DNA of 52,193 nucleotides, from assembly GCA_054600435.1 (NCBI GenBank), contig BAAIJX010000093.1:1-52193 (forward strand). Direction: 5' to 3'. The notes beneath the pieces were generated by a model. It was given only the letters and a program-made list of their open reading frames with translations, made no database searches and was not told where the DNA came from. The DNA is from Neophaeotheca triangularis. Taxonomy: Eukaryota. The translations under genes and the position numbers were made by a program. Shown here piece after piece: positions 4,964 to 30,174 of this stretch (the stretch's first letter is position 1; each line of letters opens with the position of its first letter).

Positions 4964-5070
4964 TGTGAAGTCTGTCGAATGAGAAGTTGTATATACTACG
5001 AAGGGAGGGTAGCACCAAGTGAAAGAGTCAGATGTCGGAAGATGCTGGACAAGTCCAAGGTTGTCGAGGT

Positions 5071-6425: not shown

Positions 6426-7885
6426 ACACTGGTCCGCGTGAATGTTGATGGCCGGGGTGAGAGGAATATTCACGCCAACAGATACCGAGCTGAACGGCCC
6501 CTGTGAGCAACAGCAGAAGGCTGGTCGGTAATGAAGTGGAGTTTGCAACTCAATTCATATAGATGTGCTGCCAGCGGAGCCTCCGCTCAGGCTCAGGCTA
6601 ACGTGTGTAAGTTGGTGGCATTTCGAACGCTATTCCAGACCACTTTGCTGTCTGGCAAGTGCCAAATAAAAGTAAGTTGATAACGATTTGAATGCTATTT
6701 CGAACCACTTTCCCACTTGGAGCGTGCAAGATCAAGGAGAGGTTTCTGAGGCAAACTGCCGGCCGGAACAACGACGGTAAATCCATGCTCGCCGATTTAA
6801 TGGTACAGAACTCGTAATAGCGAGACTATAGAGAAGGCAGTCTGGTACTATATCACGATGTTGGATTGAGTATGGATTGATAGGAAAGAGGGAGCGGTTT
6901 GATATGCTGTAACAGAAGCTAAAGGCAGCTAAGAAGGTGCAAAATCGCTTTGTACTCATCGTTGGCTTAGCAAACAGGATTTGGGTTTGAGTGCGCAACC
7001 ACTGGAGCAGCATCGCACCTTGCCAGAGAGGCCTCGGTAACCCAGGAGTCGGAGGTGATTGGACATTACAGAGGAGTGCTGGGGTCCTTGGGGACATTGA
7101 TTGAGCCGATTAAGCATAGTCGTATGATTATTGTACTTCCACGCCAGGAAAACGGCGTCGATATAGTCGTACGTTCAGGCTCTAGAAGAGCGAGGGCGAG
7201 CCGGGATTCTTTGAATATCGGGACTTAAAAAAAAGGCCATAGTGGCTACTGGGCGAAGAGCATTGGATGCGGGATGATAATGACCTTTTGTGGCATTGCG
7301 TATTCAGGCAAATCACGAGACTTGCTGTGAAAGTGAAGTTGAAGGGGAAGATGAGGTCGGAAAAGCCAATGGGCCGCTAGTCAAAATGGGGAATGGTGTG
7401 AACTACAAAGCTTGGCACCTGTGGGGTCAAGCTTGGACCTGCATGCGAGCTCTAAGAATCTCACCTGTGGGAGGAAAGTCCGAACCTTCCCTAGGAAGGT
7501 ACCTAAAGTGAGGAGTGAGGAAGCTGCTGCCGCCTTGAGAGTTCGATCTATCGCAAACCTCTCACAAAATTCCCCCGCCGTCACTCCCGAGTTCACTTTG
7601 CGCGCCTCCTTCGTGACACTATCGCGTTGCACGTGGTTCCCTTTGAGCTTCCATCTCCCGTCCCGTCCTCTTTTTCCATCCTTCACTCTTTCCCCCTCTA
7701 CCTTACTTTTCTGCTTACCTCCCATACCATCACCACTTAATCGCCTCTCGCGCACTTCTCGAAATTCAACCGCCCCGCACATGCCTTCCTAATCCGGCAA
7801 CGCCGACGACAGGCTCCGCCACTGCCACTCCCACTACCATCATCACCATCACCTCCACACCTCCACACCTCTTCCACCGCCCAGC

Positions 7886-10800: not shown

Positions 10801-13800
10801 AGTGATAGTCATCGACTCTAAGGGGGAAGACGACTCTTTTGCCACTGCTGCTGAGACTCAGACGCCAGCTGCTACAGCTACCACAGCACAACCTGCACAG
10901 CAAGACACATCTCAACAACAAGATGGCAGCTCTCCCAGCAAGGCCATCGACGTACCTTCCGGTGGCGAAGAGAGCGATTCTGAAGTCGAAGAGGACGGAG
11001 ATGTCGCTATGGCTGGAGCTGGTGAAGCTACCGCCTTTGAGCATCGGGACGTTGCGCCTGCTGGTGTTGCCGAGCAGACTGCTTCGGCCGAAGTCCAAGT
11101 CCCAGACTCTCTGGCTATGGATGTTGATCGCGTTCCGGAATCTTTCGCTATTCCCCGACACCAACTACAGGAGCTAGAGCAGGCTGAGGGGCGTGTTCAA
11201 GAGGACCCCACCGTCATCTTTGCCTCAGGCAAGGCTTTCCATCTCGCACCTCCCGATGTCACGACCAACGAAGACGGCAAGGAAGCCGCTGCGAACGCCG
11301 AGGTTGCAGAGGCAGACGACACTCGCTCCGTCGTCGAAGTCACTCGCGCCGCACACGAAGCCACGACCCCTTCCTCCCGCGCCCGCCGGAGCTCCAACAT
11401 CAACGGTCCCCACCAATTCCTCCCAACTTCCACCTCAACCGCAGTCCGTACTCCTCGCAGCCGCGGCAGAGCAAGAGGTAGACACACTCCCACCGCGCAG
11501 CCTCGAGAGCCCGAAGAGATCACCGACGACCCGGTTGAGGAAACCTCAACCCAGCAAATGGCCACCGCGGCCGTAACTCCCAGGACCGCTCGCGCGAACC
11601 GCACAGTCCCGTTCTCAACTTCCCGCCGAAGCCAGCGTCGTCCCTCCGCTGCTGATGGGCGAGTCGACGAGCAAATTACGCAAGAGCTCGAGGCCTCACA
11701 AGATCACGAGAGCGCTCCGTACATTAACGGGACCGTCGAAGTCCGAGGCGAGAGCGACGAAGACCGGAAGGACGAGACGCAGCCAGCTCCTCCTCCGACT
11801 CAAGGGCGAGCGTTGAGACGGTCGTCCAGAGTCATGGCTCCTGCACAGACTGAGCCTGAAGTTGAGAATGCTCCACCCCGCCGTCGCAGGCAGAGACGCT
11901 CGTCGCAAGCCGTCCCTGATGCTAGCGAAGACGAATCGCAAGCTTTCCAGACGCAGCCCACGCCTCCTACGGCTCGTCGAAGGGGTGTAAGAAGGCCTTC
12001 TCGACAGGCTCGGATTACTGTGCCCGCGGTTCATGACTCGAGACCTGCGGGGGGAGCGTCGGGGGTCTTTGAGGAGGAGGGCTTTGATGCTGGTGCGGAT
12101 GAGGATGTTGTTATGGAGGATCGAGATGGAGAAATCGGGGATGGCGATGAAGAGGATGAGGTCATGGGAGACGATTCTGATGACGAAAGGGCTATGGAAA
12201 ACGATGCCGACGACGAAGACCGACCCATGACGCTAGAAGAATCCCGCGCCCGCGTTATAGCCGACGGCAACGCTTACCTCCTCATCGACCCACGCGACGA
12301 ATCCGCTTCCCCGCCACCGGATATGAAAGTCACGGCCGAGCGCGCAAACGAACTCTGGAACGCCACCGATGAAGAGTACATGCGTCGAGCCCGCGCTATG
12401 GGAATCAAAGAAAAGTACGTCCAGGAGAAGTTCATCCGGCTCAAAGCCTGGGACATGCATTTACGGGCCATGGCTACAATGGATTGGAATCAGCGGAAGG
12501 AGTTCAGGGAGTGGGAGCGTAGGGAGGTTCTGAAGGAGAGGGCGAAGAGAGGGGAAGCGGTTTTGAGGTTGAAAGTTGAGAGAAGGCGGGGTGATGGGGA
12601 TGAGGAAGCGGATGAGGAGATGATGAGGGATAGCGATATCGATGTGGGGAGTCAGTGTGGGTTGACTGATGATGAGGTGGCGGATGATTCGTACATGTAT
12701 CAAGGGGAGCGCGACCGGGCGGAGTATTTGGCTCTGGGGCCGAAGAAAACTAGGAGGTTTGGGGGTGAGGGGTGGAGTGATGTTGATGATGATGATGAGG
12801 AGGAGGATGACGATGGTGAGGCTGCTCCCGCCCTTAACGACGAGCCGAGGGTTGTCGAAGTCGAAAGCGAGGCTGGCGAACAGCAACCGAGCCGACTGGC
12901 CGCCATTGAACCCACCTCCGCCTCTCTCTCGCAACAACCGATTGCGACGACGGAAGAAAACACAGCCGAAGCCTCCCAACGGCGCCGACGCGACTACCTC
13001 TCCGAAGCCCCCGTGACCAGCCAAAGCATCAACATCTACGACGACTCTAGCAAAGTCATCGGCGAGCGAAATGCCAACGCCACGACACCGCCCTCTCCCA
13101 CCATCCGCATCAACTCTTCCGCGCCACCTCCATTGCGGGATCTCAGTCCTATTGAAGGGCTTGTTGGAGGGACTCAGGAGACTACGGCTACGCCACGAAG
13201 CGCGCGAGGTTGGGTCGCTTACAATGCCCGTGCTGATCGAGACCCGGAGATTACGGACTCAATGCTCCCGCCGTGGCGCGAGGAAGTCTCGAGACAAGAG
13301 CGAGAGCAAGCAGCTCAAGAACCAGCGGCGGCTGATGATGTTGAGACGGCCCTTCCTGCCGCCACCGTCACTAAAGCCAATGGAGACAAAGTGTCCCGCA
13401 AACTCTCCACAGAAAACGACGCCGACCTGATGCCCCCGCCCGCTGTTCCGAGCTCCGACAATTTTCACTCGGATCATGCCTCCTCTGTCCACAGTGCCGG
13501 CAGCGGCAGCGGTGGGGCCAACAGGCAATCGCGCCGCAAGCGAAGAAAGAGCGCCAACCTCCGGAAAATGTCTCTGGAGCAGCGGCAACAGCGGACTTCC
13601 TTCAATGCCGGCGCCGTCGGTGCCGGCAATGCCACGGGCGACCAGGAAGCAATCAAGCAGCTGAGACAGGCGGACGCGGAGAAGCGACGGAGTAGTAGCG
13701 TGTTTCCACCTAGCTCGCCACCGACGGCCGCAGTTGTTGAGGAGCCTGTGGGGACTTCGCAAGCGACGACGGTGACGGCGAGTTCGGGGTTTACGCAGAG

Positions 13801-14095
13801 CCAAGGGACGGCTGCGAGCGGTAACGACACCGTCACTGCCAATGCTGATGCCAGTCCCGCTCCACGACACCACCCACCGCCCTCGCGAGTCCAAGCTCAA
13901 ACACCCTCACGAGCTCAAGCGAGAGCGCCTTCCCTATCCCAGGAGACGCCACTACGAGAGCACTTTGCCCCTTTCATCCGGAACCCCGACCCCGCTCCGC
14001 CGACGCCTAGGATTCCGGAACCGTGGGTTTTGCCTAGTTTCATGAGGGTCGGGAGTCAGGATAGCTCTTCTTCGAGTTCGAGCTCGAGTGATTGA
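7886..14095 (+). CDS. 2069-aa largely disordered protein with N-terminal Dnt1/Net1-like domain and Myb/SANT-like repeats
   Basis: Single long ORF. N-terminus VRFTVYVLP...TINDLWERIEQRF...LYFSRLQTSDGADL...VGALY resembles the ubiquitin-like N-terminal domain of nucleolar Net1/Dnt1 proteins. Trp-initiated repeats NWTVREDAILL, RWSKREAALL, GWKDRHSAFL. Basic NLS-like clusters. Confidence 0.8.
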   Translation: MAPADESHLDVRFTVYVLPPPLSTAAEPWDPNGSEKRPSGTKSLAVPSCRSETINDLWERIEQRFALAYRHQRDLYFSRLQTSDGADLMRFDSVGALYGNLPWSEWKVYMRTLRVAVKDSLPATTALRPEGFVKPELTEEEAERRREQRERYGVEVGEMEVERPVESRERDDGEGRTDQDGFKIPALPKPRSARGRRQRDEVSDSEGEQSRKSKSQTPGRRKRTRSPSADVSGTESGKKKRKRAKAEKEEHEERKKRKKQRRESRSENAGSEASQPDQPLESAGKDEGDIGEAPAIASTRTNQPNNAIRGPNGTQNSEGEGQITPDSGQRLASFEPPESAQRPGKGRTAVSGGLHGEQLHPLSEDVGIQPVDIEDPAVDDDLLLAAEDATQQTNDAAGPNQLPTQTDEALPSSLPLPTAPQAIAETPAARPSAELPSSQTAFDALTSSQARADSELSSTRNWTVREDAILLKSMFLKLKPFQVIARYNLDRSDSGVRGRKRTLLRRFPDASKVDRSTEVGNAAADTGAEAGSSPVKARWSKREAALLRQGVVDGFEDAEIRNMHFGNRSLESVAKQIRRSEKGYWFGEKARKDFPTDDVELKGWKDRHSAFLKRAVREGMHERDAIKKWFYAWEAKLVKRKFQAFREKLEKIGGFRPRTAVDEGKSSQRDGDAEALAEVEGEDDPSIDSSPPWMPDTANRPSFVATPAIPATGNTSSTQAPQPTSTGPTATATPAIAAAGQGTRSSPPHPSPTTTNARPADPPSTGQLRRPTASASRHSRGFLATSGSGNRRRAAAPTSNPAATNTPATITAAANASTVNPAATNAPAVNTPAVRVIQANHARTNSPHVVISNGEQNTARRAAFLAMPEENSQDSQQTTLAFPRDKGKGRADGLPRPDMSSAGGSSQVEGAGSGDRAAGDAAAEGGEQQQECLEIPETVQGDSQQPLTQEHDASADGAVGGQPQQQQQQQQEVIVIDSKGEDDSFATAAETQTPAATATTAQPAQQDTSQQQDGSSPSKAIDVPSGGEESDSEVEEDGDVAMAGAGEATAFEHRDVAPAGVAEQTASAEVQVPDSLAMDVDRVPESFAIPRHQLQELEQAEGRVQEDPTVIFASGKAFHLAPPDVTTNEDGKEAAANAEVAEADDTRSVVEVTRAAHEATTPSSRARRSSNINGPHQFLPTSTSTAVRTPRSRGRARGRHTPTAQPREPEEITDDPVEETSTQQMATAAVTPRTARANRTVPFSTSRRSQRRPSAADGRVDEQITQELEASQDHESAPYINGTVEVRGESDEDRKDETQPAPPPTQGRALRRSSRVMAPAQTEPEVENAPPRRRRQRRSSQAVPDASEDESQAFQTQPTPPTARRRGVRRPSRQARITVPAVHDSRPAGGASGVFEEEGFDAGADEDVVMEDRDGEIGDGDEEDEVMGDDSDDERAMENDADDEDRPMTLEESRARVIADGNAYLLIDPRDESASPPPDMKVTAERANELWNATDEEYMRRARAMGIKEKYVQEKFIRLKAWDMHLRAMATMDWNQRKEFREWERREVLKERAKRGEAVLRLKVERRRGDGDEEADEEMMRDSDIDVGSQCGLTDDEVADDSYMYQGERDRAEYLALGPKKTRRFGGEGWSDVDDDDEEEDDDGEAAPALNDEPRVVEVESEAGEQQPSRLAAIEPTSASLSQQPIATTEENTAEASQRRRRDYLSEAPVTSQSINIYDDSSKVIGERNANATTPPSPTIRINSSAPPPLRDLSPIEGLVGGTQETTATPRSARGWVAYNARADRDPEITDSMLPPWREEVSRQEREQAAQEPAAADDVETALPAATVTKANGDKVSRKLSTENDADLMPPPAVPSSDNFHSDHASSVHSAGSGSGGANRQSRRKRRKSANLRKMSLEQRQQRTSFNAGAVGAGNATGDQEAIKQLRQADAEKRRSSSVFPPSSPPTAAVVEEPVGTSQATTVTASSGFTQSQGTAASGNDTVTANADASPAPRHHPPPSRVQAQTPSRAQARAPSLSQETPLREHFAPFIRNPDPAPPTPRIPEPWVLPSFMRVGSQDSSSSSSSSSD

Positions 14096-14886: not shown

Positions 14887-16325
14887 ATGTTGGCACGCTC
14901 GGTCGCGCGCGCTGCGGGCGCTGCGAAGACTGTCGGGAGGGTGAGTTTTTACCCACACCTACACCTATACCTATACACACCACCGCCGCGCCGTTATCAC
15001 CCATTGCTCGTCAACAGCACAGCACAATGGCAACGGGCAGCCTGAGTTGATGTCGTGTCATGTGATGGTTTGGAATGGCATTTTCGCTGACTGTCTTGCT
15101 TGTCTCGTCTCCAGCGCAACGCCTCGACCTCTTCCGACTCCGCTTCTTCCGCCGGCTGGAAGAACACTGCCGCGCTTTCGGCTAGCACTCTGCTCGCTGT
15201 AGGCAGCTGCGGATGGTATTACACGCAGTTTGGGCGTAGCACGTTTGCTATGACGCCTGCTGAGGAGGGGTGAGTTGATGATACTATTCTTTCCTTTTTG
15301 CGGGGTGGCCGGTGGAACAAGAGGTGGAGGTGGGATAAGAGGAGGGGCCTTGGTGCGGATAATATGGGTGAACAGGGAAATGAGGTGGAATCATTGAGAT
15401 GTAGATGGTTTTCTGGATAGGTTGGTCGGTCTTTTGCTAACCATCAATGCTTCCTTCAGCCTCCACGCAACTGCCTACCCATGGGAACACGAAAAGCTCA
15501 CCAAAACCTTCGACCACGCCACCCTTCGCCGCGGTTTCCAAGTCTACCGCGAAGTCTGCGCTTCCTGCCACTCGCTCCAGCGCATCCCTTACCGCAAGCT
15601 TGTCGGCACCATGATGACGGTCGACGAAGCCAAGGTCATGGCGGAAGAGAACGAATACGACACTGAGCCCAACGACGAGGGCGAAATCGAGAAGCGCCCC
15701 GGCAAGCTCTCCGACTACATCCCATCGCCGTACAAGAACGACGAAGCCGCTCGCGCTGCCAACAACGGCGCCCTGCCCCCAGACCTTTCCCTCATGGTCA
15801 AGGCCCGCCACGGCGGCTGCAACTACATCTTTTCCCTGCTCACCGGCTACCCCGAGGAGCCTCCAGCGGGTGCCTCCGTCCCCAGCGGTCTTAACTTCAA
15901 CCCCTACTTCCCCGGCACGGGCATCGCCATGGCGCGTGTCCTTTACGACGGCCTTGTCGAGTACGAAGACGGCACCCCCTGCACTTCCTCTCAGATGGCA
16001 AAGGATGTCGTTGAATTCCTCAACTGGACTGCCGAGCCCGAGATGGACGACCGCAAGAGAATGGGCTGGAAAGTCATGGCCGTGGGATCTGTCTTGTTCG
16101 CGCTGAGCGTGTGGGTTAAGCGGTAAGTAACATCCCGAGTGCGCTGCAAGATTGGCGCTCCGAATGAGTTGCCCGCTGACATGTGAATTACTCAATAGTT
16201 ACAAATGGTCCACCCTCAAGACCCGCAAGCTCGTCTACAACCCACCCACCTCGGCCGCCGCCAAGAACCCCAGCTCCCGCAGGCCCGAAGTCACCATGAA
16301 GGGCAACCACACCGGTCACTGGTAA
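14887..16325 (+). CDS. CYT1: Cytochrome c1, heme protein, mitochondrial
   Basis: Exons 14887-14940, 15115-15269, 15460-16122, 16199-16325 with GT-AG introns. Presequence MLARSVARAA; MTPAEEGLH; heme motif CASCH; RAANNGALPPDLS; FNPYFPG; C-terminal TM segment followed by KRYKWS. Confidence 0.98.
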
Positions 16326-19182
16326 AGAACGACACCAGCGGGGGGTTGATGATGCTAAGCAGATGAGTGAGGGAGTCGGTGAAGAGGAAGAGGAGCGTGG
16401 ATGGGTTTGATGGTATGAAGGAAGAGTTGAGACGTATAGATGGAGTGGATGCATAGACTGCTATTTACTGGCCGGAAGAGGGGTCGGGCGCACGTGGTTG
16501 TGAGCCAGCGTGGGAGTGGAAGGGAAAACCGAACGGGGAATGGAAAGAGATGCCGTCTTTTTGTACAAAGTGTACCGTTAGTTGCTCTCGCTGCGAACTC
16601 GAGAGTGTCCGAACGGGTGGTGTGGTGTTGCAAGGCTTGGCTGATTTGTCACCCCTGTTATTTTACCCTCGTTCGCTGGTCTTGGTGGTTCGGCGAGTGA
16701 GGTGTCGGTGGAGTGAGGGGTGTGGATGGACTGAGGGATGCGGTTGGAAATGGAGCTGGCGGTGCAGGTTTGTGTTTCATGTGAAGAGGCATGTGGTCTA
16801 AGTAAGTCAAAGGTGGATTCTGGTTTCCCTTCTCTCCTCATTCCTCGATACTGGCTTTTGCTTTGGGAAGCCTCGGTCTGCGCTCTCCTCTCCTGTTTTC
16901 TGCCACTTTCTGTCAATCTCTGCTCCGGCAACCCTGCCCCTTTCCCCGTTCATCTCCCTTCTCGCCCCTCTTTCGCTCTGGCCATTCCTCTTTACCCGTC
17001 CCGCTCTTTGCTCTTTCGTCTAGTTCTGTCTAATCCATCTCGTCGTTCCGCTTGCATTCTGGTTGTGCTCCCTGATCGACCTCCCTTTCCCCCTTTATTC
17101 TCCTACTCCCATTCTTACTCCCCTAATCACGGCCTCATCTCACTTCTTTCCAGGCGGTTGTATCCGGCTTCCTCGCTCCCCGTTTCCTTCTTCTCTGCCC
17201 GTCGGCCCATATCCCCTTGAAGAGGCATTCCTTCCACTTCTCCTGCATGCATCGCTTTTGCCGGTTCCAACTCGATAGTCCTCTGGCTATACCCGACTCT
17301 TGCTCCCTACGGCTCTACTCTTTTTCTCGCATTGGAGCCTTGCCTTCGTTTGCTTTGCGCCTAGGGGTTTCATCTTGATCCGCCTCTTGTCTTCCGGTGT
17401 GGCCTCCTGTCCGCTCATTGCAAAGTCATGCGCTTGGCCCCACTGCCCCTGCATCCGCTCCTTGCGTTCTCCCTACGGCGCTCCGCCTTTTCGAGCTACA
17501 GATTCAGGCGACTAATGTCCGCCCTTTTGCCTCGCCGTCGTGCTCGTCATCACACAACCGTCGCATGCAGTCCGCTCCTCCGCCTTCTCTAGTACCTACA
17601 GACTTCCCGCCATCTTCGCTGTCTCCTCTACGCACGAGCCTCGAGCTGTACATTTCCCGTCCCCTCGGCTGTCTTCACCAGCTCCGGGCTTTACTTGGTC
17701 CTCAGCCCTCGCAAGCAATTCCGCCCCATATCTAACCTAGTCTCCGTCCGGACTTCCGCTCTCGCACCTCGTCGCTAGACCTTTTCCGCTCGCTTCTGCT
17801 TTCTCACTTCGTTTCAACTATGGTGGCGATTCATTTCTCGCCTGTGCTCACAGCGCCTCGAATGCTTCCGCCGGTCTCGTATCTACTTCGTCATTGCCCA
17901 GTCTTGCTCCGATCCCTGCTCGAGCTTGCCTGATCTCCGGTCTTCGCAGCCTGCGTCTCGGCAGGAAGGGTGTACTCCTTTTCACATTGTTATCTCTTCG
18001 GTTGTTTCTTCAAAAGTTGTCCGCCTTCGCTTCTTTCCTTCACTATTTATCTGCCCTCTCAAGCGCTGTATATTCTCCTACCACTGACCCCTTGTTCGGA
18101 CACTCGATCCCGATGTCGTTTGGGCTTTCCTTGCCTCTTCCCGAACTCTCGGCGTCCCCAATAGCCTAGTCAACCCATAACTCTTTGCGTCCAGACGTAC
18201 TGCCCTTCCCCTGTAGTTCCTCGCTAAGCTCTATCCCAACATTCTCATTCTCTTGCCTGATCTTTCCTCGCATTGCCTATTCCAAGGTCCTCTTCAAGCA
18301 AGACTAGAGTCCCGCATCTGTCTCTGTCGGACTTTTGCTCCCCGATCTCTCACTAGTGACCCCACGAATCAGACATCCTCACTGCATCCCCCCATCACCT
18401 TCTATAGCCAAACCTATCAATGCAACCCCCCCGTCAAGTCCTACTAGGACCCCACGCCTAGAACCTCGCACCGGCACGTCCCCCGCTTCTGAGTCACAAC
18501 TGCTACTTCCCCTACATCTCGTCCGCTGCCAGGCTGCCTTCTCATTCGAACCTTCTACTCACGCTCTTCCAGCGACTTCCTCCCAGGTGTGCAGCCAAGT
18601 GCAGCACGTACTAGTCCAGAGACAACACACGGCAACTGGCCGGCCTCGAGGGATCTTGCGTCTTCGTCTACCGCGAAGTGATGCCAATACCAACCGGACG
18701 AGAAGTCTGGAATTGCGTCTGAGAGGGGTGCATAGTTGGATGACCGTGCGAGTCCGTCGAACACCGTGGCCGCTTCCGCCGAGGGTGACGTGGTCTGGAA
18801 AACAGAGATGTTCGCGACCTTGTTCCTATTCCGGGCCTTGGCATGTAAGATCTTGGCGGTCCATGAGGTTGCGGTGTGACGGGAGGGCGGAGAACCTCCA
18901 GCCAGTTGTTCGATAGATATTGGGAAATTGAGTGCTCAGTTTAGACGCTCGATTTAATCGCTTCTCCTCGACCGTCTCATCAATCCGTTCGGTTGGTCGA
19001 ATGTCAAAATGAGGCCTCACCTAGACATGCTTGTCGAACTATTTGACATCCACTCGTCCCAAATAACTCATGACTCTCGAAGCCGTAGAGATTAAAAAAG
19101 GCAAAAAGAAACTCCCAACGGGAGAAGAAACCACTTAGCAGAAGTCGCACCCAGTTCAAAGGCTGGTTTGCTTTTGCCAAGT

Positions 19183-19294
19183 GTACAGAGCTGGGGATCG
19201 AACCCAGGTTATACCTTGGTAAGGAGGGTAACTAAGGGGGGGTCAGCGAAAGGGGAAGTCTTATGTGGTTACCATCCGCAAGACTGATTTTGTA
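19183..19294 (-). tRNA. Degenerate tRNA-like sequence (Gly-like 3' half; probable pseudo-tRNA)
   Basis: Minus strand has a perfect T-arm/B box CTGGG-TTCGATC-CCCAG followed by CTCTGTA. A possible 5' acceptor strand TACAAAA at 19294-19288 pairs 5/7. Oligo-T tracts lie downstream (~19094-19110). Anticodon and D arms do not fold canonically. Confidence 0.35.
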
Positions 19295-20249
19295 AATTCA
19301 AGTTTGTTGTGTCTTCTCACTCGCCTGAAGTAATTGGCCGTGAATAATATATATAGTCTAGATGGTTTTGTGACTTGTCGGGGGATGTGATATCGCCTGG
19401 ATCTCGTTGTGGGTTGCGCTTCCTTGCCTTCTGGCTTTCACGCGCAATCGGCGAGGTGATACATGATGGCTTACACAGGTCAACGGTAAGCTTCTACTGA
19501 GCTTCTCACTGCAATTTTTCGTGTCAAGTGAAGCGAAGTGAAGTGAAGTCAGGTGATGTGACGTGAAGCTAACATCCCTGTCACGTGTAAAGGGGCATGT
19601 CACACTGCACACACTGCTTCACCTGAAAGGGCTGAAATGGAAGTAGGGATGCCCAGGTGGTCACTACAAAGTCCTAGCACCTCCATTATACGCCTTCTTA
19701 CTTGCCACCTACCCACGGTACCGTCAGAATCGTCTCGAGGTGTTCTACCTAATCTCACCTTCACCTCATCAAGACTGGAACAACTGTTATACACTGGTCC
19801 GTCTCTATTCAACACGAGTCAACCGACATCGACGTCTCCAGTGGGCTAGTTCATCAGATGCATGCGTCCTATTCATCAAGCTTGAATAGGCTTCAGCCAT
19901 GCGCTGGCTCTGATCGAAATGTTCGCGGGCCATACAGTCTTGGAAATAATCTCCGCACAAAGTCCATCTCTGCGCAAGATTGACGATTTCATAACAGTCG
20001 TCCCCGTACTCTTGTCCAGCGCAAACCTTGCACACGTTCGAAACCCCTCCAGCGCTCAGCAACCTCTTCAGGCGAAACCTCTGCAAGCCAACCACAACCC
20101 TCCCCAACCTCAAATTTTCAACCGCATATTTTTACAACCCAAATCGATCCATCACATCAACACCGCTCATGTCCGAAAGTCCCACCTCGCAACTCCAAAC
20201 ATCGCCGTCACAATCTCCCAAAAACCGACCTCCAAAACCCCCAAATTCC

Positions 20250-20702
20250 TTCTAGGAATGTCCGTGCTCAACATCCCAAGACTAGCGCGGTTTGGCTTCG
20301 ACCAATCAGCATCGACCAAGTTCAAAAAAGCACGACAGAATTGCAATTTCGACAGCTGTTAATTATCCTCGAGGTTTGCAGAACCCATAGTACCCTCAAC
20401 TGCAATCTTCAGAGCCGAGTCCGTCGAGTTGTTCGACTCCCAAAATTCCGCCGTTCTTAGAGAAGTCCGAGCTCAAAAGTCCAGCAACTAGCGCCGTTTC
20501 GCTTCGACGAATCAGCATCGACCTTTCCAAACGACAAATCGCAAAACTGCGCCGTAAGTATCTGCAAATCATCTTCGAGGTTTGGAGAACGCAGTACTTG
20601 CTCGAATGCGATCGTAGGAGGCAATTTGATCGAGTTATGGATGTTTCAAGACGCGCGAGTTTCTAGGAATGTCTGTGCTCAAAAAGCCGAAAACTAGCGT
20701 GG
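20250..20702. repeat. Degenerate ~205-bp tandem repeat (about 2.2 copies)
   Basis: TTCTAGGAATGTCCGTGCTCAA...ACTAGCG recurs at ~20250, ~20454 and ~20661. GCTTCGACxAATCAGCATCGACC and TCGAGGTTTGxAGAAC are shared by the first two units. Confidence 0.75.
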
Positions 20703-21325
20703 AGAGACGGACAGCCAATGGGCGGCGAGCTTGTCGAGTCGAACTCGTTGCGGAGTTGGCTTCTTCTCTGGGTTGAGGTGTTGGTAAAATGTGTCTAGGA
20801 TTGAGGCCTGAAGTGATTTATCGAGTAACGCGACCGGATAGCAGAGGAGAAGCAGACTCACAAACGAGGACCGTCGCTCTTCCCAATTGGGTATCTAGGC
20901 CAAACCTTGGTTGAAACGAGCATTAGTCGACTCGTAATTTGGGCGTCGCCCACTTCATGGCGTCTTTACTCGAGCAATGCGTGCATGACTTGCTTCCTCC
21001 TCCCTGCCGGGGGCTGTCGCGTTCTGGGAGACACTAAAGCAGCCTTTGAGGGAGAAGATGCACAATTGGACTCTCACCGTATCTGGTCCTCGAGCCTGGT
21101 CGCCTGACTCGCCTCCGATGAACCTTCTGCGGTAGCAGGTTATAAACCAGGGGCGGCCGCAGCCAATACGACACTGAACGATCAATCACCACGACCGCTA
21201 AAACGAGACCTCACGACTTACACGACCTCTCGCGCAAGGCCCCAGGGGTATCACACAACTTACCAGAAACTACCCCAGCAACACCACCGCATCCACCCAT
21301 TCAACTGGCCCCTCAAAAAAACCCT

Positions 21326-23696
21326 TCACAGAGTCAACCCCATCCCCCCAGCCTCTTCCGCCCTCATCACAACCCCTCGCCAACCAATCCTCGGCCCAGT
21401 GCCAAACCCCCCAACATTCGAAGTCGCGACAAGACCTTGAGCCCATTTCCGCCAAAAAGCCCTTCTGCCGCCATCATCCTCCCCTTCATCATCCGAGCCA
21501 GAATTGAGATTGCGTAAGAAAAGGAACGTAAGCATTTCCTCGGACAACACTCGACCCTCGTTGGCAGAGACGGTGGTGAAAGGGTCTTGACCGCCAGTCC
21601 CTGCACTTGCAGCTTCGGAGTGATTGGGAGCGAAAGCGTTCAACTCCCTCCATCCCCTCTCCAACTCCCGAATAAAAACCGCAACATCGCCCCCGCACCC
21701 CTCCAAAGTCGTAGCCATCAGCTCCTCATAGGCCGCAAAAGCCCCACCTGCACCAGTAGGCCTACACGCGTGCTCCAAAGCCTCCCAGACACCCTTCGCA
21801 TGCTTCAGATGCTCAACCCTGCTTCTCCAGATTGGCGCGAGTAGTGTCCAGAAACCGGATAGTAGCACGTTGTTGCGGCGGTTGTAGATGGCGAGTTGAC
21901 GGATATACTCATTCCAAACTGATCTCTCTACTTCCTCTTCTCCAGCCGCCGGTTTCGGAGCTCGTGGCTCGACTTTCTGGCCCAGCAGTACATCGGCCGT
22001 GTTTTCCCTTCGACTTGCGGCGAGGAAGGCTCGGCTGAATTGCGGCCAGTCGGCTGCGGTTTGTAGGGGAGGATTGTGTTGATAGCTTTCGCCCGTGCCG
22101 GTGGAAGCTTGGGCTAGACTTTCGACAAAAGAGGATTGGAGCGTCAGTTTCTCCTTTGGGTTTTGGTTGGCTTGAGCGTGGGAGGGGTTGATTGCGGCGA
22201 GGTTTGCGAGGATGGCGGAAGCGTCCTCGATGTTTTGTTGCCGTTTAGAGATGCCTGAGCGGCGAGGCGCGGCGTTGGGAGTGGAGTGCGTGGTGGTTCC
22301 CGCGGCCATGCCGAGAAGAGCGCTTGGTGCTGTGGTTGTTGTGTTTGGGTCTGTTGGGTTGGATGTGGTGACTTCGACATCCTCATCGCCGTCTTGCCTG
22401 ACGATACCACTCCGCTGCTGTACAGCGGGGTGCGCTTCGCTCAAGTCGTGGTCGTAGTGACAAGTCGCATTTGTCCTCTCGCAAGTCCCGCATGTCGGTC
22501 TCACGCTGTTGCACCTGGTTTTCTTCGCCCTACAATTTGTACACGCCGATGGATATCCAGTCCCTTGCTTCATCTCCTCTTTCCGATGCACGCAAGTACC
22601 GTACATGTTGTAGGTGAGCTTCATATTGCCGACATCGGCGCGGGTGAAGAGCCCATTAGGGTTAGTGCGTTGCAGGAATGTCAAGACTTGCGCGGTCGAG
22701 TTGCCGATTGCGAAAAGACCGTCGACAGCCTTCTCCACTCCCCCCATCCTTGCTCTCCTACGGTGACCAGGCATGGAAAGGGCATCGAGCGGGCCATGGT
22801 TGTGGTGTGTAATGCGAAGTCGAATCTGCCACTCTCCTTCAGCGTTCTGTGGGTCGCAAGCCACGGCCGTCAAACTCATGGGACAGCCAGTACGATTGCT
22901 CTTCCTGTTGAGACGCTGCCTCGTCTGGTCGGTTAACCCTCCGGTATTGGACATTTTACCATGCTTGCGGCAATTGTAGTAGCGCTTGTAAAATTGGCCT
23001 TTTGCGTTCTTTCTGTTGGCTCTACGCACCATCTCGTACCCATGCTCAAGCGACCAGGCGTGGATGTGCTCCTCCAGCGCGTCGGCGCCAGGGAAGATGC
23101 CCTCCGGTGGTGGTGGAATGTGAAAAACGGGATCATCCTCCCCTTCGCCGTTGTCATTTCCATCCTCCTCTTGACTACGCTCGTTAATACCTTGCTCTTG
23201 CTGTCCCGTCCCTCCCCCAAGCGCGTTCACCAAGTTCAGCTCATAGTCTGCACTTGGAGAGTTGGACTGCGGGGGCGGAGCACCCGGTCCGTTGCCCGGA
23301 GATTGAACTTGGGGTCGTTGCTCCTGCTGCTGCTGCTTTCGGGGCCTGCCTCGTCCGCGTTCCGGCGGCTGCCTCGAGGATTGAGTCGGCGCTGGAGACT
23401 GCGATTGCTGTTGCGGGTACGAAAGGGTCTCAGGTAGCGGCGGGGGTTGAGACTGCGGAGTCTGGTGGCTGGCAAAGTTCAAGGAGGATGGCTGTTGCTG
23501 TGATTGCTGCTGTGATTGCTGCTGCTGCTGCGGGGGTTGGGAGTAAGCATACGGAGCCTGCACCGGAGGTTGATACGGGTAGTTGCCATATTGGAGCGAT
23601 TGCAGCGGCGGATAAGGATCGTCTGCTGAAGGATTAGAAAAGGTCACATGATTTCCGAAAGACAAGTGAAGGGAACTCACATGGTCCGGAGTTCAT
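21326..23696 (-). CDS. Chimeric DNA-binding protein: AT-hook + MULE/FAR1 DNA-binding region + Zn(II)2Cys6 cluster + Copia Gag-like C-terminal domain
   Basis: Exon 1 23696-23681 (ATG AAC TCC GGA CCA T), intron 23680-23626 (GTGAGT...CTAAT...CAG), exon 2 to 21326. Motifs: RGRGRPRK; HAWSLEHGYEMVRR...YYNCRKHG...RKSNRTGCPM...WQI...HNH; CTNCRAKKTRCNSVRPTCGTCERTNATC; PLQTAADWPQF...HAKGVWEALEH...LSEEMLTFLFLRNL. Confidence 0.88.
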
Positions 23697-24678
23697 GTCG
23701 GTTGTGGCTGGCGATAGTGTCGATGTTCGATGTCAATGGATACGGGCGCTGGGTGCTCGTTAGAACGTGCAACCAGCTTCGTATTGATGAGACACCCGCA
23801 AGTGGGGTGCCAAAGTGCCAAGCCCGGGTCGGCCCCTACGAGCTCTCCGAAACTTCACCCTCATCCCGATCATTATTTCAGACCTCACCCTCCATTTTTC
23901 CAGACCTCACCCTCCATTTGCCCGCCTAAGGTATCACGATACCATGAATAATTGCCCCTGCACCGATGCAACGTATGGATAAAAAATAAACTCGTATCCA
24001 CGAACGCTTTCACGGTTTTCCGTAGTACCAATGTTCTTAGGAGCTGCCGGTAACTGCAAAAACACCATCTTGGACCCTACGCACGCGAGAGACGCCAGCA
24101 GCATATATGCACTGCTAGATGCTCTCGATACTCTCGAATACAAACACCGAAACACCATACGTTGTCTCTCCCTGCCGACAGACGTCACCAGCGTCGGCGA
24201 TGTGTTCAATGAAGCATACGCGCAGACAAAAGAACTTCAAAATCGCTCTCGTATCAAGCAAGCACCAGTCGTTGATCTGAGAACGGTCACGGGTCTACCT
24301 CGTCGACCAAAACGGAAAAAGTAATACGACTTCTGGACAGATTGAAGTCGGCAGGTCATGTGGTAGCCGGTGTTGATCTTGTGTACGTAGGACTACCCTG
24401 GGCAGGCATCAAGATCATTCTTGAGTTAGGCGCTGGCCGAAGAGCTGCCTCGTACCACTGAGACTGTCCCTTAACACTACCTGAGTAGTTCATAGGTTTG
24501 CTTTGAACGACAGTAAAGAGAAGTCTTAGTCGCAAGACTTGCGCTGGCGCTTTACACAAGCAATCGGCTGAAAGTATATTTGGATCGTTATGGGTGGCTG
24601 GTTAATAAGACATCAAACGCATCGAATACACCAAAAATCACACACGCTACAACTGAACACAAAACAAACGCACCAGAC

Positions 24679-26148
24679 TCAACCCATCCTCATCCTTTCA
24701 TCGTCTTCCCGCTCCTGGTCAGCCTGTTGTTGTGCCGGGTCCACAGGTCCAGCCTGTCCGGCAGCCTCACCAACAACTCGACCCTCTCCAGCGGCCAGAG
24801 GAGGCCGCCTCTCCGGTCCCCCGTTGTCATCCCCCCACGCCGCGACCCTCTCCCGACGTAGCCTTCGCGCATCCTCAGCAAGAACCAGTTCTTCCAAGGT
24901 CTTTCCACTAATAAATCTTTCCCACACGCTCAGCCCCCGCTCGTTGGACTTGTATTGAGTGTCCAGAGCATCCTGTAAGGATCTGGCTCTCTCATCCAAG
25001 TCCACCATTCTGTTAATATACCAGAGCCGGCCTCGCATCTCCATACCCGCTTGCTCTTTCTTCACCTCGACACTCATCAACTTCAACGCGACTTCGACGA
25101 AAGCGGCGTGAGGCTTCAGGGCACGATGCATGCGCGTCCACTGAGGATCACCATAAGAGATGAAGTCGGAAAGCCCAAGCCAATTGTGGCTGAAGCACGC
25201 AATGATACGGGAGGCCTCGTGACGCCATGTCTCGTTGTTGCCGATGGTGTTCGCCCTCGTAAGTAATCGAAGCATCCTCTCGCACATTTGAAGCCGTTGG
25301 CGATCAGCCAGGACTGCTTCTCGGTTGCTCACATAATCATGAAACCCCCACAAGAAGCGATCGTTGGCCGCAATGCCCGACGGTCTCAATTCGGACTCAA
25401 ATTCCCTGTAATGCTGCAACCATGGGGGTCCGCCGAACTCCGGCCAGTGATGGCCTTCAAAGTCGACCTCGCGCCAGTAATCCCAAATCCTCGCATAGAG
25501 AGAGTGCCCGCGGACATCCAAAGTTGGGTCGATCTCATCGATGTCAATCAATTCTCTCCAGAGCACTATCATGTGACGAATTCGTTCGACATCAAAACTA
25601 AACGCCTGTAGTCGGTCTGCTTCCTGCTCATGAACTGGTTCGTACAGCCTACAGGTACCCTCGGCGGCGCCGTCGGCCGTGTAGTGGCCGCTCCCAGGGT
25701 GGTCGGCTTCAATGCCGCAGAGATAGCAGAAATGCGCCCGGCAGCTGTGGGCCGAGCACGTCATGTGATTGCAGCCGGTGAAGCGAAAGAATCGCATGAA
25801 GCATCTAGGGCAGTCCTGGTAATCGACACCCCTCGTCAAGTCTGGGATCGGAGACAGTTCTTTGGGAACGCGAGCGAGGCGCTCTTGGTGTACGGCTTTG
25901 TATCTTTCGACCATTTCCGGGGGGAAGTATTGCTCGAAAGTCTCAATTTCCATGGTGTGGGTGCCCCATTTTGGTGGCCAGGCCATTTCGTTCTCGATGG
26001 CTGCTTCGAAAAGTGGCTGGATGCTGGTCGGAATGCAGCCTGCGCACAGCGCAGCTCCTGCTCCTGGGACCTCGAAGGGAGCCTCGCCTGGGTAGTCTCC
26101 CAGGCATACGCCGCATGTGTAAGTTGCTTGATTGTTTTCTTCTGCCAT
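24679..26148 (-). CDS. Truncated RBR-type (RING2/Rcat-containing) E3 ubiquitin ligase-like protein
   Basis: Likely start MAEENNQ at 26148. Degenerate RING1 (CGVC...LCAGC...WPPKWG), then CPRC...GCNHMTC...C...FCYLCG, the RBR RING2 signature that carries the catalytic Cys. Confidence 0.8.
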   Translation of the reverse strand: MAEENNQATYTCGVCLGDYPGEAPFEVPGAGAALCAGCIPTSIQPLFEAAIENEMAWPPKWGTHTMEIETFEQYFPPEMVERYKAVHQERLARVPKELSPIPDLTRGVDYQDCPRCFMRFFRFTGCNHMTCSAHSCRAHFCYLCGIEADHPGSGHYTADGAAEGTCRLYEPVHEQEADRLQAFSFDVERIRHMIVLWRELIDIDEIDPTLDVRGHSLYARIWDYWREVDFEGHHWPEFGGPPWLQHYREFESELRPSGIAANDRFLWGFHDYVSNREAVLADRQRLQMCERMLRLLTRANTIGNNETWRHEASRIIACFSHNWLGLSDFISYGDPQWTRMHRALKPHAAFVEVALKLMSVEVKKEQAGMEMRGRLWYINRMVDLDERARSLQDALDTQYKSNERGLSVWERFISGKTLEELVLAEDARRLRRERVAAWGDDNGGPERRPPLAAGEGRVVGEAAGQAGPVDPAQQQADQEREDDERMRMG

Positions 26149-27330
26149 GGTGATGAGTGTAAAAACAGGTGATGGTAAGTGTATAATCGATCTGGTCTTC
26201 GAAAGAGGGGGCGGGTAAATCCAGTCCGCATTTCTAAAGGCTTCGCGAGGAAAGTCAATGGGCCTTGTCTTCGCCGGAATAGTCGATGGAGACAATGCAA
26301 AACCTCGATCAAATCTCCCGTCGAGAATAGCTTCATTGTATCGGACTTCTTGCTCCTACTAGGAATATGAGGATGAATAGCCGAAGGAGAAGAAAGAAGG
26401 TGGCTGAAGATAGAAAGACAAAGGACTTGAACTTGCTTTGACATTCAGCTTCGACCCAAGGCTGGCGACAAAGGACTGCCACCGCGAGCAACACCTGCCG
26501 CTGAATAACATAATACTGCCAAGAAAGACAATGAGAGGGACTTCGTCGCAACGCAATAGGGGCCGACGGCGTTTGTCAACCACGTGTAGCCGTACCTAGG
26601 TTCGCCGTCCAGCCTTCAAAGTTGAGAGTCCACGTTGCAAGCACATTACTGCGTTTGCTGAACCCACTGTCAACAGCCTGCAAAGCCAGGGTGGGCGACA
26701 AAGACAAGTATTCGCTCTCCATTCATGGGTGGGAGACTTGTCGTGGTAATTGAGACTGCCGTCGGTGCATTAGACATTGAGCATCAGACTCGATTGGGGG
26801 ATATGCTTCTTGAGAGTTGACCATGGCCCAGCTCGGTAGCGAATGCTGACAATCTTCCCTGGCCCCTGGAAGCGCCATTAAGGGGTTCATAGGGGCAGAG
26901 ATGCAACTGGGCCAGCCGTCGCTTCGCGCAAGGAAGTCGTCGTCGTCGTCGTCGTCGTCGGAAAAAGCCCTCGCTGGAGACTGTCGGGGACGAACTCGTC
27001 GTGCGCGAGATGTTGAACTGTCGTCATCATTTTCATCTTGTACGATGTCTACTGCCGACGTCAAATGTGGTGTCGTGGATGAGGAGAGCGAAGGTGTAAG
27101 GGTTGGAGTTACGGCCTGCTGAGGTTCGTTCGAGTTAGTGGAGGTCGGCGGTCGGCGGTCGCAACCAAAGCCGCCGACCGCCAAGCCATGACGATATCCA
27201 CATCGCGTCTCCCAATGAACGTCTCACGCGTCTCGAATCATCATCTCCCCCCTCACCGACCATCTCCATCCTCCTCCTCTCTTTTTACCACCTGTAGCCT
27301 TCCACCCACTCCACTCCGCCCCGCTCCGCC

Positions 27331-29097
27331 ATGGCCTTCCATTCATCACCACCATTAATACCCGACGACACCGCCGAGCTCCCCTCCACGCGCTCCCTGG
27401 GCCCGGACACCCACCTCCCCGAACCCTACTTCAAAAACTTGCCCTCTCACTTCGACTCGGACGCCAACGTCCCCAGTAGCGATCCCATCTTCAGCGACTC
27501 GCCAAGTGAAGCCGACGTTGCAGACTATCAGTCCCCCGAGCGTCAGAAGCGAAAACGTCGCGGTCCGTGGTGGGAACATGATAAGAAGCAGAAACAGCGG
27601 AAGATGCGGGGGCAGAGCAGTTTGCGGAAAGCTTTGGCCAAGGGGAAGGGGGTGGGCGGGCCGGTTGATAGCGGTGTCTGGATGGGCAGTGATGCTAGCG
27701 AGGAAAGCTTGGATAGTGTGATTGGGAGTGGGGAGCGGATGAAGGCGTTGAGGGTGCGGGAGAGCAGTGTTGAGGAGGATCAGGATCAGGAGATGGAGCA
27801 GGAGGAGGAATGGAATGGCTTCAGCGATGATGAGCCGCCAACGAGTCAGGCGACGGTCAGCGGGGACGACGCTGCCTTTGATATTGTGCAGAGTTGCGTC
27901 GATGCCGGCAAGGAGGTGGTGGACTTGTCCGATCTGGCTTTGACCGAACTGAGCAACGATACCCTACGCCCTCTCCACCAACTCATCCGTCATCCGCATA
28001 TATCTCTCACTGAGCCGCCGAGCGAGGAAGAATTCACGACACTCACACCTTCCATTCAGCTCTACCTCGCCGGCAATTGGCTGCGCAGTCTTCCCTCGGA
28101 GCTGTTCGGCCTCGAGAACTTAAACGTCTTGAGTCTGCGCAACAACAGTTTAGAGGAGATTCCTCGAGGGATCGATAAACTTCGCAAATTGAAGGAGTTG
28201 AACATCGCCCAGAACAACGTATCCGTCCTGCCTTGGGAGATGCTCGAGCTTGTTGGCCGAAGAACAACGAGCAAACGCATCACGCTACGACCCAACCCTT
28301 TCCTACAGCCCTCATACTTTGATCACGGGCTTTCTACCGGTGCACTGGCAGACTTGACGTCCCGTTTGAACCCTCGCCTCAAGCGGATCTTGGTCAACGA
28401 CAGTCCGAAGTACCGCCCCGCAGATGCGGAAGAACAAGACTGGCAGCGACTACAAGACATTGCCGAAGCCTTTTCGGTCGACCCACGCTGGGTGGAACTC
28501 TCCCTTCGCTTCAAAGAAGCCGAATTGATGAAATGGCAACAAATCGAGCAACGCTCCTGGTGCCGCGAGGCCTTCATGATTGCCCGCCAACAAACCCCGA
28601 CCGGCAGTCTGGTCAACACAACCCTCTACCTCGCCTCCTCAGCAATCCAATACTTCAACCCGGACGGCTCCGCTTACCGACCCTCCAACGCATCACAGTC
28701 TCCGGCGGCACCCTCCCTCGAACCAATCCTCACGCCGACCCAGACCACCGCACCTCAGCCACCCTCCACCCACTCCAACGCCCCCTCCCTCTTCTCCCTA
28801 TCCCTCGCCCACCTCCAAGCCAACCGCGACCTCTCCGTCCTACCCGCCGATCTACCAACTCCAATCACAACAGCTCTGGAAAAAGCGCACGCTTCCAACG
28901 TTTCCGGCTTCGGCAATGAGAAGTGCAGTTCCTGCTGGCGTCGCTTCGTCATTCCTCGAGCCGAGTGGGTGGAGTACTGGGCTGTGAATGCTGTACCCAA
29001 AGCGCCTCTGAAGGCCAGTGATGTTTTACCGTTTCGCAGGAGGGTTTGTAGGTGGGGGTGTGCTAGGGTGGGATGGGTGGGGGATCATGTGTATTAG
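27331..29097 (+). CDS. Leucine-rich repeat protein
   Basis: 588-aa intronless ORF with LRR consensus segments VDLSDLALTEL, LYLAGNWLRSLP, LSLRNNSLEEIP, LNIAQNNVSVLP. C-terminal Cys cluster CSSC...CRWGC. Confidence 0.9.
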   Translation: MAFHSSPPLIPDDTAELPSTRSLGPDTHLPEPYFKNLPSHFDSDANVPSSDPIFSDSPSEADVADYQSPERQKRKRRGPWWEHDKKQKQRKMRGQSSLRKALAKGKGVGGPVDSGVWMGSDASEESLDSVIGSGERMKALRVRESSVEEDQDQEMEQEEEWNGFSDDEPPTSQATVSGDDAAFDIVQSCVDAGKEVVDLSDLALTELSNDTLRPLHQLIRHPHISLTEPPSEEEFTTLTPSIQLYLAGNWLRSLPSELFGLENLNVLSLRNNSLEEIPRGIDKLRKLKELNIAQNNVSVLPWEMLELVGRRTTSKRITLRPNPFLQPSYFDHGLSTGALADLTSRLNPRLKRILVNDSPKYRPADAEEQDWQRLQDIAEAFSVDPRWVELSLRFKEAELMKWQQIEQRSWCREAFMIARQQTPTGSLVNTTLYLASSAIQYFNPDGSAYRPSNASQSPAAPSLEPILTPTQTTAPQPPSTHSNAPSLFSLSLAHLQANRDLSVLPADLPTPITTALEKAHASNVSGFGNEKCSSCWRRFVIPRAEWVEYWAVNAVPKAPLKASDVLPFRRRVCRWGCARVGWVGDHVY

Positions 29098-30174
29098 GGT
29101 TGTTTGTATAAGGGGGTTTGTTGATGCGGGCTGGACAAGGGAGGGCAGGGATGGAGTATGAGTATCACGGGAGAGGGTGGGATGTTTGGGAATATCGTGG
29201 AAGCGGACGAGGTGTTTTGGAGGCGGTCTGGGGCGTGGCATGGCTGGGAGAGTCGGTGATGCTTGAGCGCCCTACGACGATTGCGATGCTGGTATCGACT
29301 TCTTCGGGACTGAGTTTGACGGTCATTCCGCATTGTTCAGAGGCCAGCGATACCGCGAGTATGTACACATTGTTATCTCTCGTCTGGTCTTGACGAGCTG
29401 TAGGTAGTCGGTCTTTCTGGAAGATCAATCACACGGGAAAACAGTCTAGCGACACCCCTCCGGCTGGGGTTCACTCGCTGCCCCGAAGTCGTTCCCGGCT
29501 CAGCAGTCGTTCGATATCGAATCTTACTGTAAAAACGCGGTTCACAACAAGCAACCCGGTCGACTGCGTCTGCCATCCGAGTCCCGAGCTTGGTGCATCC
29601 CCCGCTTTCCATGGGGTGCGGGTGACCCCCCGGGTGGGCTCTGTCAAGATACTCCGGAGGGGCCGGAACGACGACGGGCTAAAACTACCGGTCGGCCGTA
29701 GAACCGTAGCCCGAGTCAGTCGTATTGACGGCCTCGAACGGGAATGGGTCGAGTTCTAATTAAAAAGCACCAACGCCCCGGCCGCCACGTGGGGTACCAA
29801 ACCTGCCGATTGATTAAACGGCGGAGCTACCCCATGGAGGCCCACGAAGGCGTTGACGATCCGAGCCGAGAGAACCTAGGTGGTCTCTGGAGATCCGCCT
29901 GTTCGCAACAGCCCTGGCTTCAAGTTACACCGATTCATACGGTATACCCCTCGAAATGCCCGCTCACGCTACTGGCACTCCGGAGGGGTTAGACTTGGAG
30001 ATGCCCCAGACCTATGCATGTCCGTATAACAAGCTGGCCCGCATGGCAGTAGACTTAGGTAGGTTCGGGTTGTTGCAAGGTTGTTCATGCACATGACGAG
30101 AGAGTGTTAAGTACGGCTGGCTGCCTTTCTCCATTCCCCCTTTTCCATAGACCTACTACACCATCACAGCAACT

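Follow-up and report, generated by a model that had tools for sequence, protein, structure and literature searches.

The window analysed here, the whole 52,193-nucleotide stretch of contig BAAIJX010000093.1 from the black yeast Neophaeotheca triangularis (Dothideomycetes, order Neophaeothecales), carries on its minus strand a gene whose predicted product joins two DNA-binding domains to a C-terminal module resembling the capsid (CA) portion of the Gag protein of Copia retrotransposons. This module is almost certainly a Gag-derived domain that is maintained by selection in the host. The fuller reading, in which a domesticated Copia capsid is part of an old and selected fusion and provides the protein-interaction surface of a transcription factor, is probable.

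Gene model and C-terminal module

The minus strand of 21500-22080, translated in the frame starting at 22078, gives exactly the peptide that the original prediction had quoted as Copia Gag-like, from HNPPLQTAADWPQFSRAF to LSEEMLTFLFLRNLNS. The peptide sits in one unbroken frame of 788 codons (21326-23692, minus strand). A 55-nt intron with GT..AG borders is predicted at 23680-23626, and the spliced 771-residue model matches database protein P0002, which NCBI annotates as hypothetical in N. triangularis, with 100% identity. The quoted peptide corresponds to residues 522-714; the conserved module is larger, extending over approximately residues 497-771 (21329-22153). The gene and the parts of its C-terminal module are as follows, with model confidence given as the predicted local distance difference test (pLDDT), and with N-terminal and C-terminal capsid domains abbreviated as CA-NTD and CA-CTD.

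21326..23696, minus strand: whole gene; exon 1 at 23696-23681 with the ATG at 23696, exon 2 at 23625-21326 with the stop codon at 21328-21326; predicted product of 771 residues
22079..22153, minus strand: pre-CA segment, residues 497-521, with the pattern RL.L.SS.VE.LA.S.CG.G.SY and a predicted helix at 504-513; pLDDT 75-86
21758..22078, minus strand: capsid N-lobe (CA-NTD-like), residues 522-628; helices at domain-model positions 8-24, 52-79, 82-88 and 94-105, pLDDT mostly 88-98
21329..21757, minus strand: capsid C-lobe (CA-CTD-like), residues 629-771; structural matches to CA-CTDs and a conserved NVGGFGTG hairpin
21545-21631, minus strand: inserted low-confidence loop of the C-lobe, about residues 671-699; pLDDT 52-73

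In the full-length AlphaFold model (mean pLDDT 59.9), the protein has a beads-on-a-string layout, with disorder over residues 1-174, a helix-plus-sheet unit at 181-275, helices at 300-347, the zinc cluster at 365-400 and disorder again at 400-465. The C-terminal segments that follow are a low-confidence helix at 466-484, a confident helix at 504-513 and a compact helical domain at 522-768.

In agreement with the original prediction that no CCHC nucleocapsid knuckle or protease follows the module, the pattern C-x2-C-x3-5-H-x4-C occurs neither in the 771-residue protein nor in the six frames of 18500-21400, and Pfam scanning of 15 large open reading frames (ORFs) of the window gave no reverse-transcriptase, integrase or protease match. 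The stop codon stands directly after the CA part, with short ORFs only downstream. A search of 15000-30000 detected no long terminal repeat (LTR)-like or inverted repeats, the sole repeat being one 37-nt pair. Because a knuckle, reverse transcriptase, integrase, protease and LTRs are all absent from the regions searched and the frame stops at the end of CA, the module is best described as a domesticated domain and not as a retrotransposon.

Sequence evidence and predicted fold of the module

The 250-residue C-terminal piece was used in an exhaustive HMMER search of 1.84 billion representative proteins, which gave 27 homologues at E<=1e-3, 19 at E<=1e-10 and 9 at E<=1e-30, the window's own protein included; the match is thus no product of chance. 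The Pfam family PF14223 (Retrotran_gag_2, the gag-polypeptide of LTR copia-type elements) matched 13 of the 26 other homologues at E<0.1, in every case within the aligned stretch, and exceeded its 27-bit gathering cutoff in four of them (P0009, 36.4 bits; P0011, 37.4; P0018, 38.3; P0019, 32.6). A further homologue, P0004, reached 25.1 bits (E 1.4e-5). These homologues align with the window's domain at E 1e-25 to 1e-44, and PF14223 positions of about 6-118 fall on the N-lobe region in homologues. At the level of sequence, membership of the Copia-type Gag family is reached through transitive homology only. The ESM Atlas, used as a source of leads only, placed a PF14223 cluster at rank 9 for the window's domain (score 0.90) and linked the homologue P0029 to Gag-like clusters with zf-CCHC. 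Alignment A1, used as a profile against PDB sequences, retrieved zinc-cluster proteins only and no capsid.

The nearest relatives that carry no transcription-factor domains are three Gag-like proteins, P0024, P0029 and P0030, which are 27-29% identical to the window's domain and share with it the pre-CA segment, both lobes and the G-x-G-T-G hairpin. When a profile of the transcription-factor family, built without these three, was compared with them by hhalign, the match had a probability of 99.8% and E 6.8e-28 over 228 columns. Their tails continue with a basic G-G-K-R-P-G stretch and then a conserved C-x2-H-x9-H-x4-C, which differs from the usual CCHC knuckle. From this alignment the co-opted piece extends from about residue 497 to the start of the relatives' nucleocapsid-like part. 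The pre-CA segment, with its invariant columns L499, S503, S504, V506, L509 and G515, aligns with the same segment of all three relatives and is thus part of the Gag-derived region. P0024, P0029 and P0030 may be proteins of active elements or members of another co-opted family. A search with region 225-480 of P0030 gave no longer Gag-Pol relative at E<=0.001, which is weak evidence and provides no link from the source lineage to a full element with Copia-type pol.

The domain was modelled with AlphaFold using a 24-sequence alignment (pLDDT 89.2; predicted template modelling score, pTM, 0.71), yielding a predicted two-lobed, all-helical capsid fold. The model was then structurally aligned to each of 48,161 PDB representatives. 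The top match was the Drosophila Copia capsid (8vvw_A), with Z 13.0, a root-mean-square deviation (rmsd) of 6.8 and 179 of 184 residues aligned across the whole model, at 12% identity. Next came the PEG10 CA-CTD (Z 10.2), the Copia T=9 capsid 8s41_A (Z 9.9) and Drt2 (9rxy, Z 9.5), a Ty1 CA-CTD that aligns with model residues 109-247 over 89 residues at rmsd 2.5. PNMA2, murine leukaemia virus (CTD, Z 8.4), Rous sarcoma virus, dArc1 and Arc (C-lobe, Z 8.0) were also matched. Every one of rows 1-30 of the structural ranking is the capsid of a retroelement or retrovirus or a protein derived from a capsid, and the first unrelated entry has Z 5.1. Foldseek against PDB likewise placed 8vvw_A first, with a probability of 0.98. 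The Ty1/Copia Gag likeness that had been proposed by eye is thus borne out by PF14223 in the homologues and by the Copia capsid as best match of the predicted fold, and the outcome that would have told against it, a fold unrelated to retroelement capsids, is not what the model predicts. Homologue sequences, predicted fold and Gag-like relatives provide three independent lines by which the module is assigned to Copia Gag.

Conservation, selection and the DNA-binding half

Homologues with organism names belong to Hortaea werneckii (41 sequences in one cluster), Acrodontium crateriforme, a Teratosphaeriaceae sp., Sphaerulina musiva and Polychaeton citri, and together with the window species they span Neophaeothecales, Mycosphaerellales and Capnodiales (Dothideomycetidae). 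The order FAR1 finger, zinc cluster and Gag recurs wherever the protein is complete, and the domain matches co-occur in P0009, P0011, P0012, P0014, P0018 and P0004. Identity to the window protein is 52-80% for the FAR1 finger (rows with the full domain), 38-94% for the zinc cluster (all but one row), 39-58% for the CA N-lobe and 24-58% for the CA C-lobe. The linker is 6-21% identical except in the closest homologue, where the value is 50%. Conservation of the CA N-lobe is close to that of the zinc cluster. Judged by this distribution, the capsid-factor fusion predates the divergence of the three orders.

Sequencing run X2, from another, close strain that bears the same organism label, provided a contig over 21456-23079 with 27 substitutions and no indel. 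The CA part contains 9 synonymous and 5 non-synonymous changes, a ratio of non-synonymous to synonymous substitution rates (dN/dS) of 0.17 (binomial p 0.0015); the whole contig contains 17 and 10, respectively, again with dN/dS 0.17 (p 1.2e-5). Run X3, from organism B, was omitted from the dN/dS calculation, since it covers the gene in pieces and its differences are only partly listed. The capsid domain is under purifying selection. The three-order spread together with dN/dS of about 0.17 argues that a whole Copia CA was co-opted long ago and has been kept by selection, and the lack of conservation among orthologues that would have contradicted the original prediction is not seen.

Several observations weigh against this reading. 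The window's own 250-residue C-terminal piece has no Pfam match even at E<=10, so that the family assignment rests on the homologues and the predicted fold. A Z of about 13-14 may arise by chance with helical models, and for this reason weight is placed on the uniformity of the match list and on its agreement with the sequence evidence. Foldseek found nothing at E<=0.001 either in PDB (best E 0.13, TM 0.34/0.44) or in the viral library BFVD, where the best match (E 1.1) was an uncharacterised giant-virus protein. The gene and its intron are predictions from the DNA sequence. The taxonomic range is drawn from 6 homologues with organism names and may be wider or patchier, and the dN/dS of the CA part is based on 14 changes in one strain pair, a small sample. 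Finally, one of the five non-synonymous changes in the CA part of the X2 contig replaces P628 (codon at 21759), a proline invariant in the 20-sequence alignment, by arginine, which may reflect true variation or an error in the contig.

Upstream of the capsid module, the gene encodes the following parts.

23117..23696, minus strand: Q/P-rich N-terminus predicted to be disordered, residues 1-175; model pLDDT<50 over 1-174
23327-23356, minus strand: weak AT-hook-like RGRGRPRK; AT_hook 14.3 bits, E 0.037, short of the 17.4 cutoff
22787..23116, minus strand: FAR1/WRKY-GCM1-type zinc finger, the type found in transposases of Mutator-like elements (MULE), residues 176-285; PF03101, helix and beta-sheet in the model
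22601..22750, minus strand: three-helix segment between FAR1 finger and zinc cluster, residues 298-347; helices at 300-311, 316-326 and 334-347
22442..22549, minus strand: fungal Zn(2)Cys(6) binuclear cluster, residues 365-400; PF00172, 35.1 bits against a cutoff of 21
22154..22441, minus strand: linker, residues 401-496; disordered at 401-465, pLDDT<50
22190-22246, minus strand: low-confidence conserved helix in the linker, residues 466-484; ILA.LQ.FQ pattern in the consensus

On the window protein, PF03101 scores 27.3 bits (E 6.2e-6), slightly below its cutoff of 28.1 bits, and the Cys and HNH residues of the finger are visible in the sequence. Among the 26 homologues, 9 match at E<0.1 and 6 exceed the cutoff (P0005, 28.9 bits; P0009, 36.0; P0010, 34.0; P0012, 32.1; P0015, 34.6; P0019, 33.9). 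The three-helix segment has no Pfam match at E<=10 and ranks among the most conserved stretches of the protein, with 47-90% identity in those homologue rows that align over 47 residues or more. A helix-turn-helix that goes back to the N-terminus of the MULE transposase may be present here. For the zinc cluster, the alignment-A1 profile matches the GAL4, RSC3, HAP1 and PUT3 chains among PDB sequences.

Ordinary Zn2Cys6 regulators frequently, although not universally, carry a coiled-coil and a Fungal_trans middle homology region behind the cluster. No family of the Fungal_trans type was found by Pfam in this Gag-bearing protein at E<=10. Behind the cluster, residues 400-465 are predicted to be disordered and the next helix, 466-484, is of low confidence, as read from the model and not from a dedicated coiled-coil predictor. 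A Tfb2 match (E 0.13), the only Pfam match at E<=10 past residue 415 of the 788-codon frame, was rejected as noise. The window contains, at 46748-49624 on the plus strand, a canonical Zn2Cys6 factor that does carry Fungal_trans_2 (194 bits), in contrast to the Gag-bearing factor.

The neighbours of the gene are ordinary genes, encoding cytochrome c1, an IBR protein, a leucine-rich repeat (LRR) protein, a sugar transporter, SRP40, a short-chain dehydrogenase and the canonical Zn2Cys6 factor. The 37-nt pair is a direct repeat (20281-20317 and 20487-20523, 92% identical, 206 nt apart) in the intergenic sequence about 1 kb downstream of the gene. Elsewhere in the window, two long open frames have no Pfam match at E<=0.001. 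One, of 2,100 codons (7793-14095, plus strand), lies in a stretch with an unusually high AT skew of 0.18-0.20 and possibly encodes a large low-complexity or repeat protein; the other, of 1,040 codons, occupies 2096-5218 on the minus strand.

Proposed role and comparison with known systems

On the evidence above, the module is a domesticated Copia-type capsid that retains the pre-CA helix, N-lobe and C-lobe and has lost the nucleocapsid, protease and pol parts. It stands in frame behind both DNA-binding domains of the factor, the MULE-type FAR1/WRKY-GCM1 finger and the Zn2Cys6 cluster. In the proposed role, it would act as the protein-protein surface of the factor, most probably by forming dimers or higher oligomers, or else by docking a partner, and would replace the coiled-coil and Fungal_trans region of ordinary Zn2Cys6 regulators, much as SCAN serves C2H2 factors. 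The SCAN domain mediates dimerisation. With no Fungal_trans match and no confidently folded segment beside the zinc cluster, CA is the sole candidate in this protein for assembly or regulation. A homodimer prediction with two copies of the 250-residue domain, in which the supplied alignment was not used, scored 0.61, with one unrelated control at 0.43, a result that favours neither binding nor its absence. Capsid lobes are modules that self-associate. The Ty1 CA-CTD is reported to dimerise in solution (Cottee 2021). By analogy with such domains, the chances that the module works in self-association or partner docking are about even.

The structural part of the original prediction, which had also suggested that the module multimerises the factor or senses, restricts or poisons Copia particles, therefore stands, and oligomerisation is plausible by analogy; restriction, sensing and poisoning are unsupported, the domain being old, slowly evolving and at most 29% identical to the Gag-like proteins. 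In a docking role, in place of self-association, a short peptide or co-regulator would be held by the CA lobes, much as peptide ligands are by the N-lobe of Arc, and the lobes would form a regulatory or ligand-responsive region. The N-lobe aligns with the Arc N-lobe in its structure with a stargazin peptide (4x3h), although the Z of 4.8 lies in the range that the method calls common, and the C-lobe aligns with the Arc C-lobe at Z 8.0. The module also occupies the usual place of the regulatory region of Zn2Cys6 factors, where Pfam detects no such region, and its N-lobe is better conserved than its C-lobe (39-58% versus 24-58%). As a reading distinct from self-association, with which it overlaps in the preferred explanation, docking is unlikely.

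Restriction or sensing would require the module to co-assemble with active Copia Gag, poisoning particles or titrating or activating the factor. Precedents are Ty1 p22/p18 and the endogenised Drt2, CA-CTD fragments described as preventing particles from assembling. Drt2 (9rxy, Z 9.5) also appears in the list of structural matches, and both CA lobes are kept in the window protein. These known factors are, however, reported to be stand-alone CA-CTDs with high subfamily specificity, the target being set by three interface residues, whereas the closest Gag-like proteins without transcription-factor domains are just 27-29% identical to the module, which is old and common to three orders. The dN/dS of about 0.17 gives no sign of an arms race, albeit in a weak test, and poisoning of a lattice needs no DNA-binding domains. 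Co-assembly with active Gag is thus quite improbable, and that the capsid still recognises resident Copia Gag, making the factor a retrotransposon sensor or particle poison, is very improbable. If it did, element expression would pull the factor into Gag assemblies, or free it from them, and thereby link Copia activity to a transcriptional programme; a host regulator assembled from two transposon classes (MULE finger and Copia capsid) would then be watching a third party. It is hardly credible that the module still builds closed or RNA-carrying shells in the manner of Arc, PEG10 and Copia. Both lobes are present and the whole Copia capsid aligns (179 of 184 residues), but the protein has no nucleocapsid, zinc knuckle or basic tail, about 500 DNA-binding and disordered residues precede CA, and the protein is built like a nuclear DNA-binding protein. 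An inert remnant or annotation chimera, that is, a decayed Gag lying by chance in frame behind a factor, or a gene of a mobile element, is equally hard to credit. The window's sequence does fall under every Pfam Gag threshold; yet a single 788-codon frame crosses all domains, P0009, P0011, P0012, P0014, P0018 and P0004 repeat their order, the domain is conserved as well as the zinc cluster with dN/dS 0.17, and flanking repeats are absent from 15000-30000.

On the preferred reading, a domesticated capsid serving a transcription factor, the family would extend a phenomenon that is well documented in animals (Arc, PEG10, PNMA, SCAN) and thin in fungi. The combination of a MULE-derived finger, a Copia-derived capsid and a fungus-specific Zn2Cys6 cluster in one protein would be a compact case of transposon parts becoming a regulator. 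The domain is small, well predicted and described as soluble, and would make a testbed for whether capsid self-assembly is the property that is reused. Members are present in plant pathogens (Sphaerulina) and in extremotolerant black yeasts (Hortaea), in which knock-outs are feasible.

Compared with Copia Gag itself (PF14223; PDB 8vvw and 8s41), the module has the same predicted two-lobed helical CA, with pre-CA, NTD and CTD in the order seen in the Gag-like relatives. Unlike Copia Gag, it has no accompanying knuckle, protease, pol or LTR, follows DNA-binding domains in one fused protein and belongs to a conserved host gene. Ty1 p22/p18 and Drt2 derive from the same retrotransposon superfamily, and Drt2 is likewise an endogenised Gag piece. 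As described, they are stand-alone CA-CTDs that are closely related to their target element and very specific, acting on near-identical elements; here a full CA, ancient and divergent, is part of a factor.

Among fungi, a survey of 2,011 eukaryotes reports in its fungal section three gag co-options, none documented in fungi before (Wang & Han 2021). Crtg12 (Copia, Pleosporales) and Crtg13 (Copia, Pleosporales and Mytilinidiales) are single-copy co-opted Ty1/Copia gag genes, and Crtg14, a Bel-Pao gag fused to PEX14 in Tremellales and Trichosporonales, is the only fused fungal case given there (Wang & Han 2021); none of the three is attached to a transcription factor. The window family resembles Crtg12 and Crtg13 as a co-opted Copia gag in Dothideomycetes and is distinguished from them by the orders reported. 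The genome list of the survey includes Hortaea werneckii EXF-2000, Sphaerulina musiva and other Teratosphaeriaceae and Mycosphaerellaceae (Wang & Han 2021); its fungal section names no Crtg for these lineages, and in the supplement the first two places for each search term fall in the genome list only. The N-terminal DNA-binding domain of the window protein is of the same kind as in the fungal WRKY-GCM1 factors that were described as derived from MULE transposases with loss of the transposase (Babu et al. 2006). The main text of that paper contains neither 'gag' nor 'binuclear' (0 occurrences of each), and the present architecture is not described there. Full-text literature searches found no description of a Gag/Zn2Cys6/FAR1 fusion. 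As far as these searches reach, the window family would be the fourth fungal event and the first complete Copia capsid on DNA-binding domains.

The closest functional analogue is SCAN, described as a capsid C-terminal domain that vertebrate transcription factors carry together with zinc fingers (Wang & Han 2021). In both systems, a piece of retrotransposon capsid is part of a zinc-dependent, sequence-specific factor. SCAN differs in being a CA-CTD only, of Ty3/Gypsy (Gmr1-like) origin, vertebrate and attached to C2H2 fingers, whereas the window family has a whole Copia CA at the C-terminus of a fungal protein with Zn2Cys6 and FAR1 domains, and Pfam gave no SCAN match to this protein at E<=10. 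The window family is an event independent of SCAN, an analogue and not a member of the SCAN family. It is a co-opted Gag that resembles SCAN in its partner and differs in its Copia source, its full CA, its occurrence in fungi and the transposase-derived finger alongside; what happened with SCAN would thus have happened a second time, independently, in a different kingdom.

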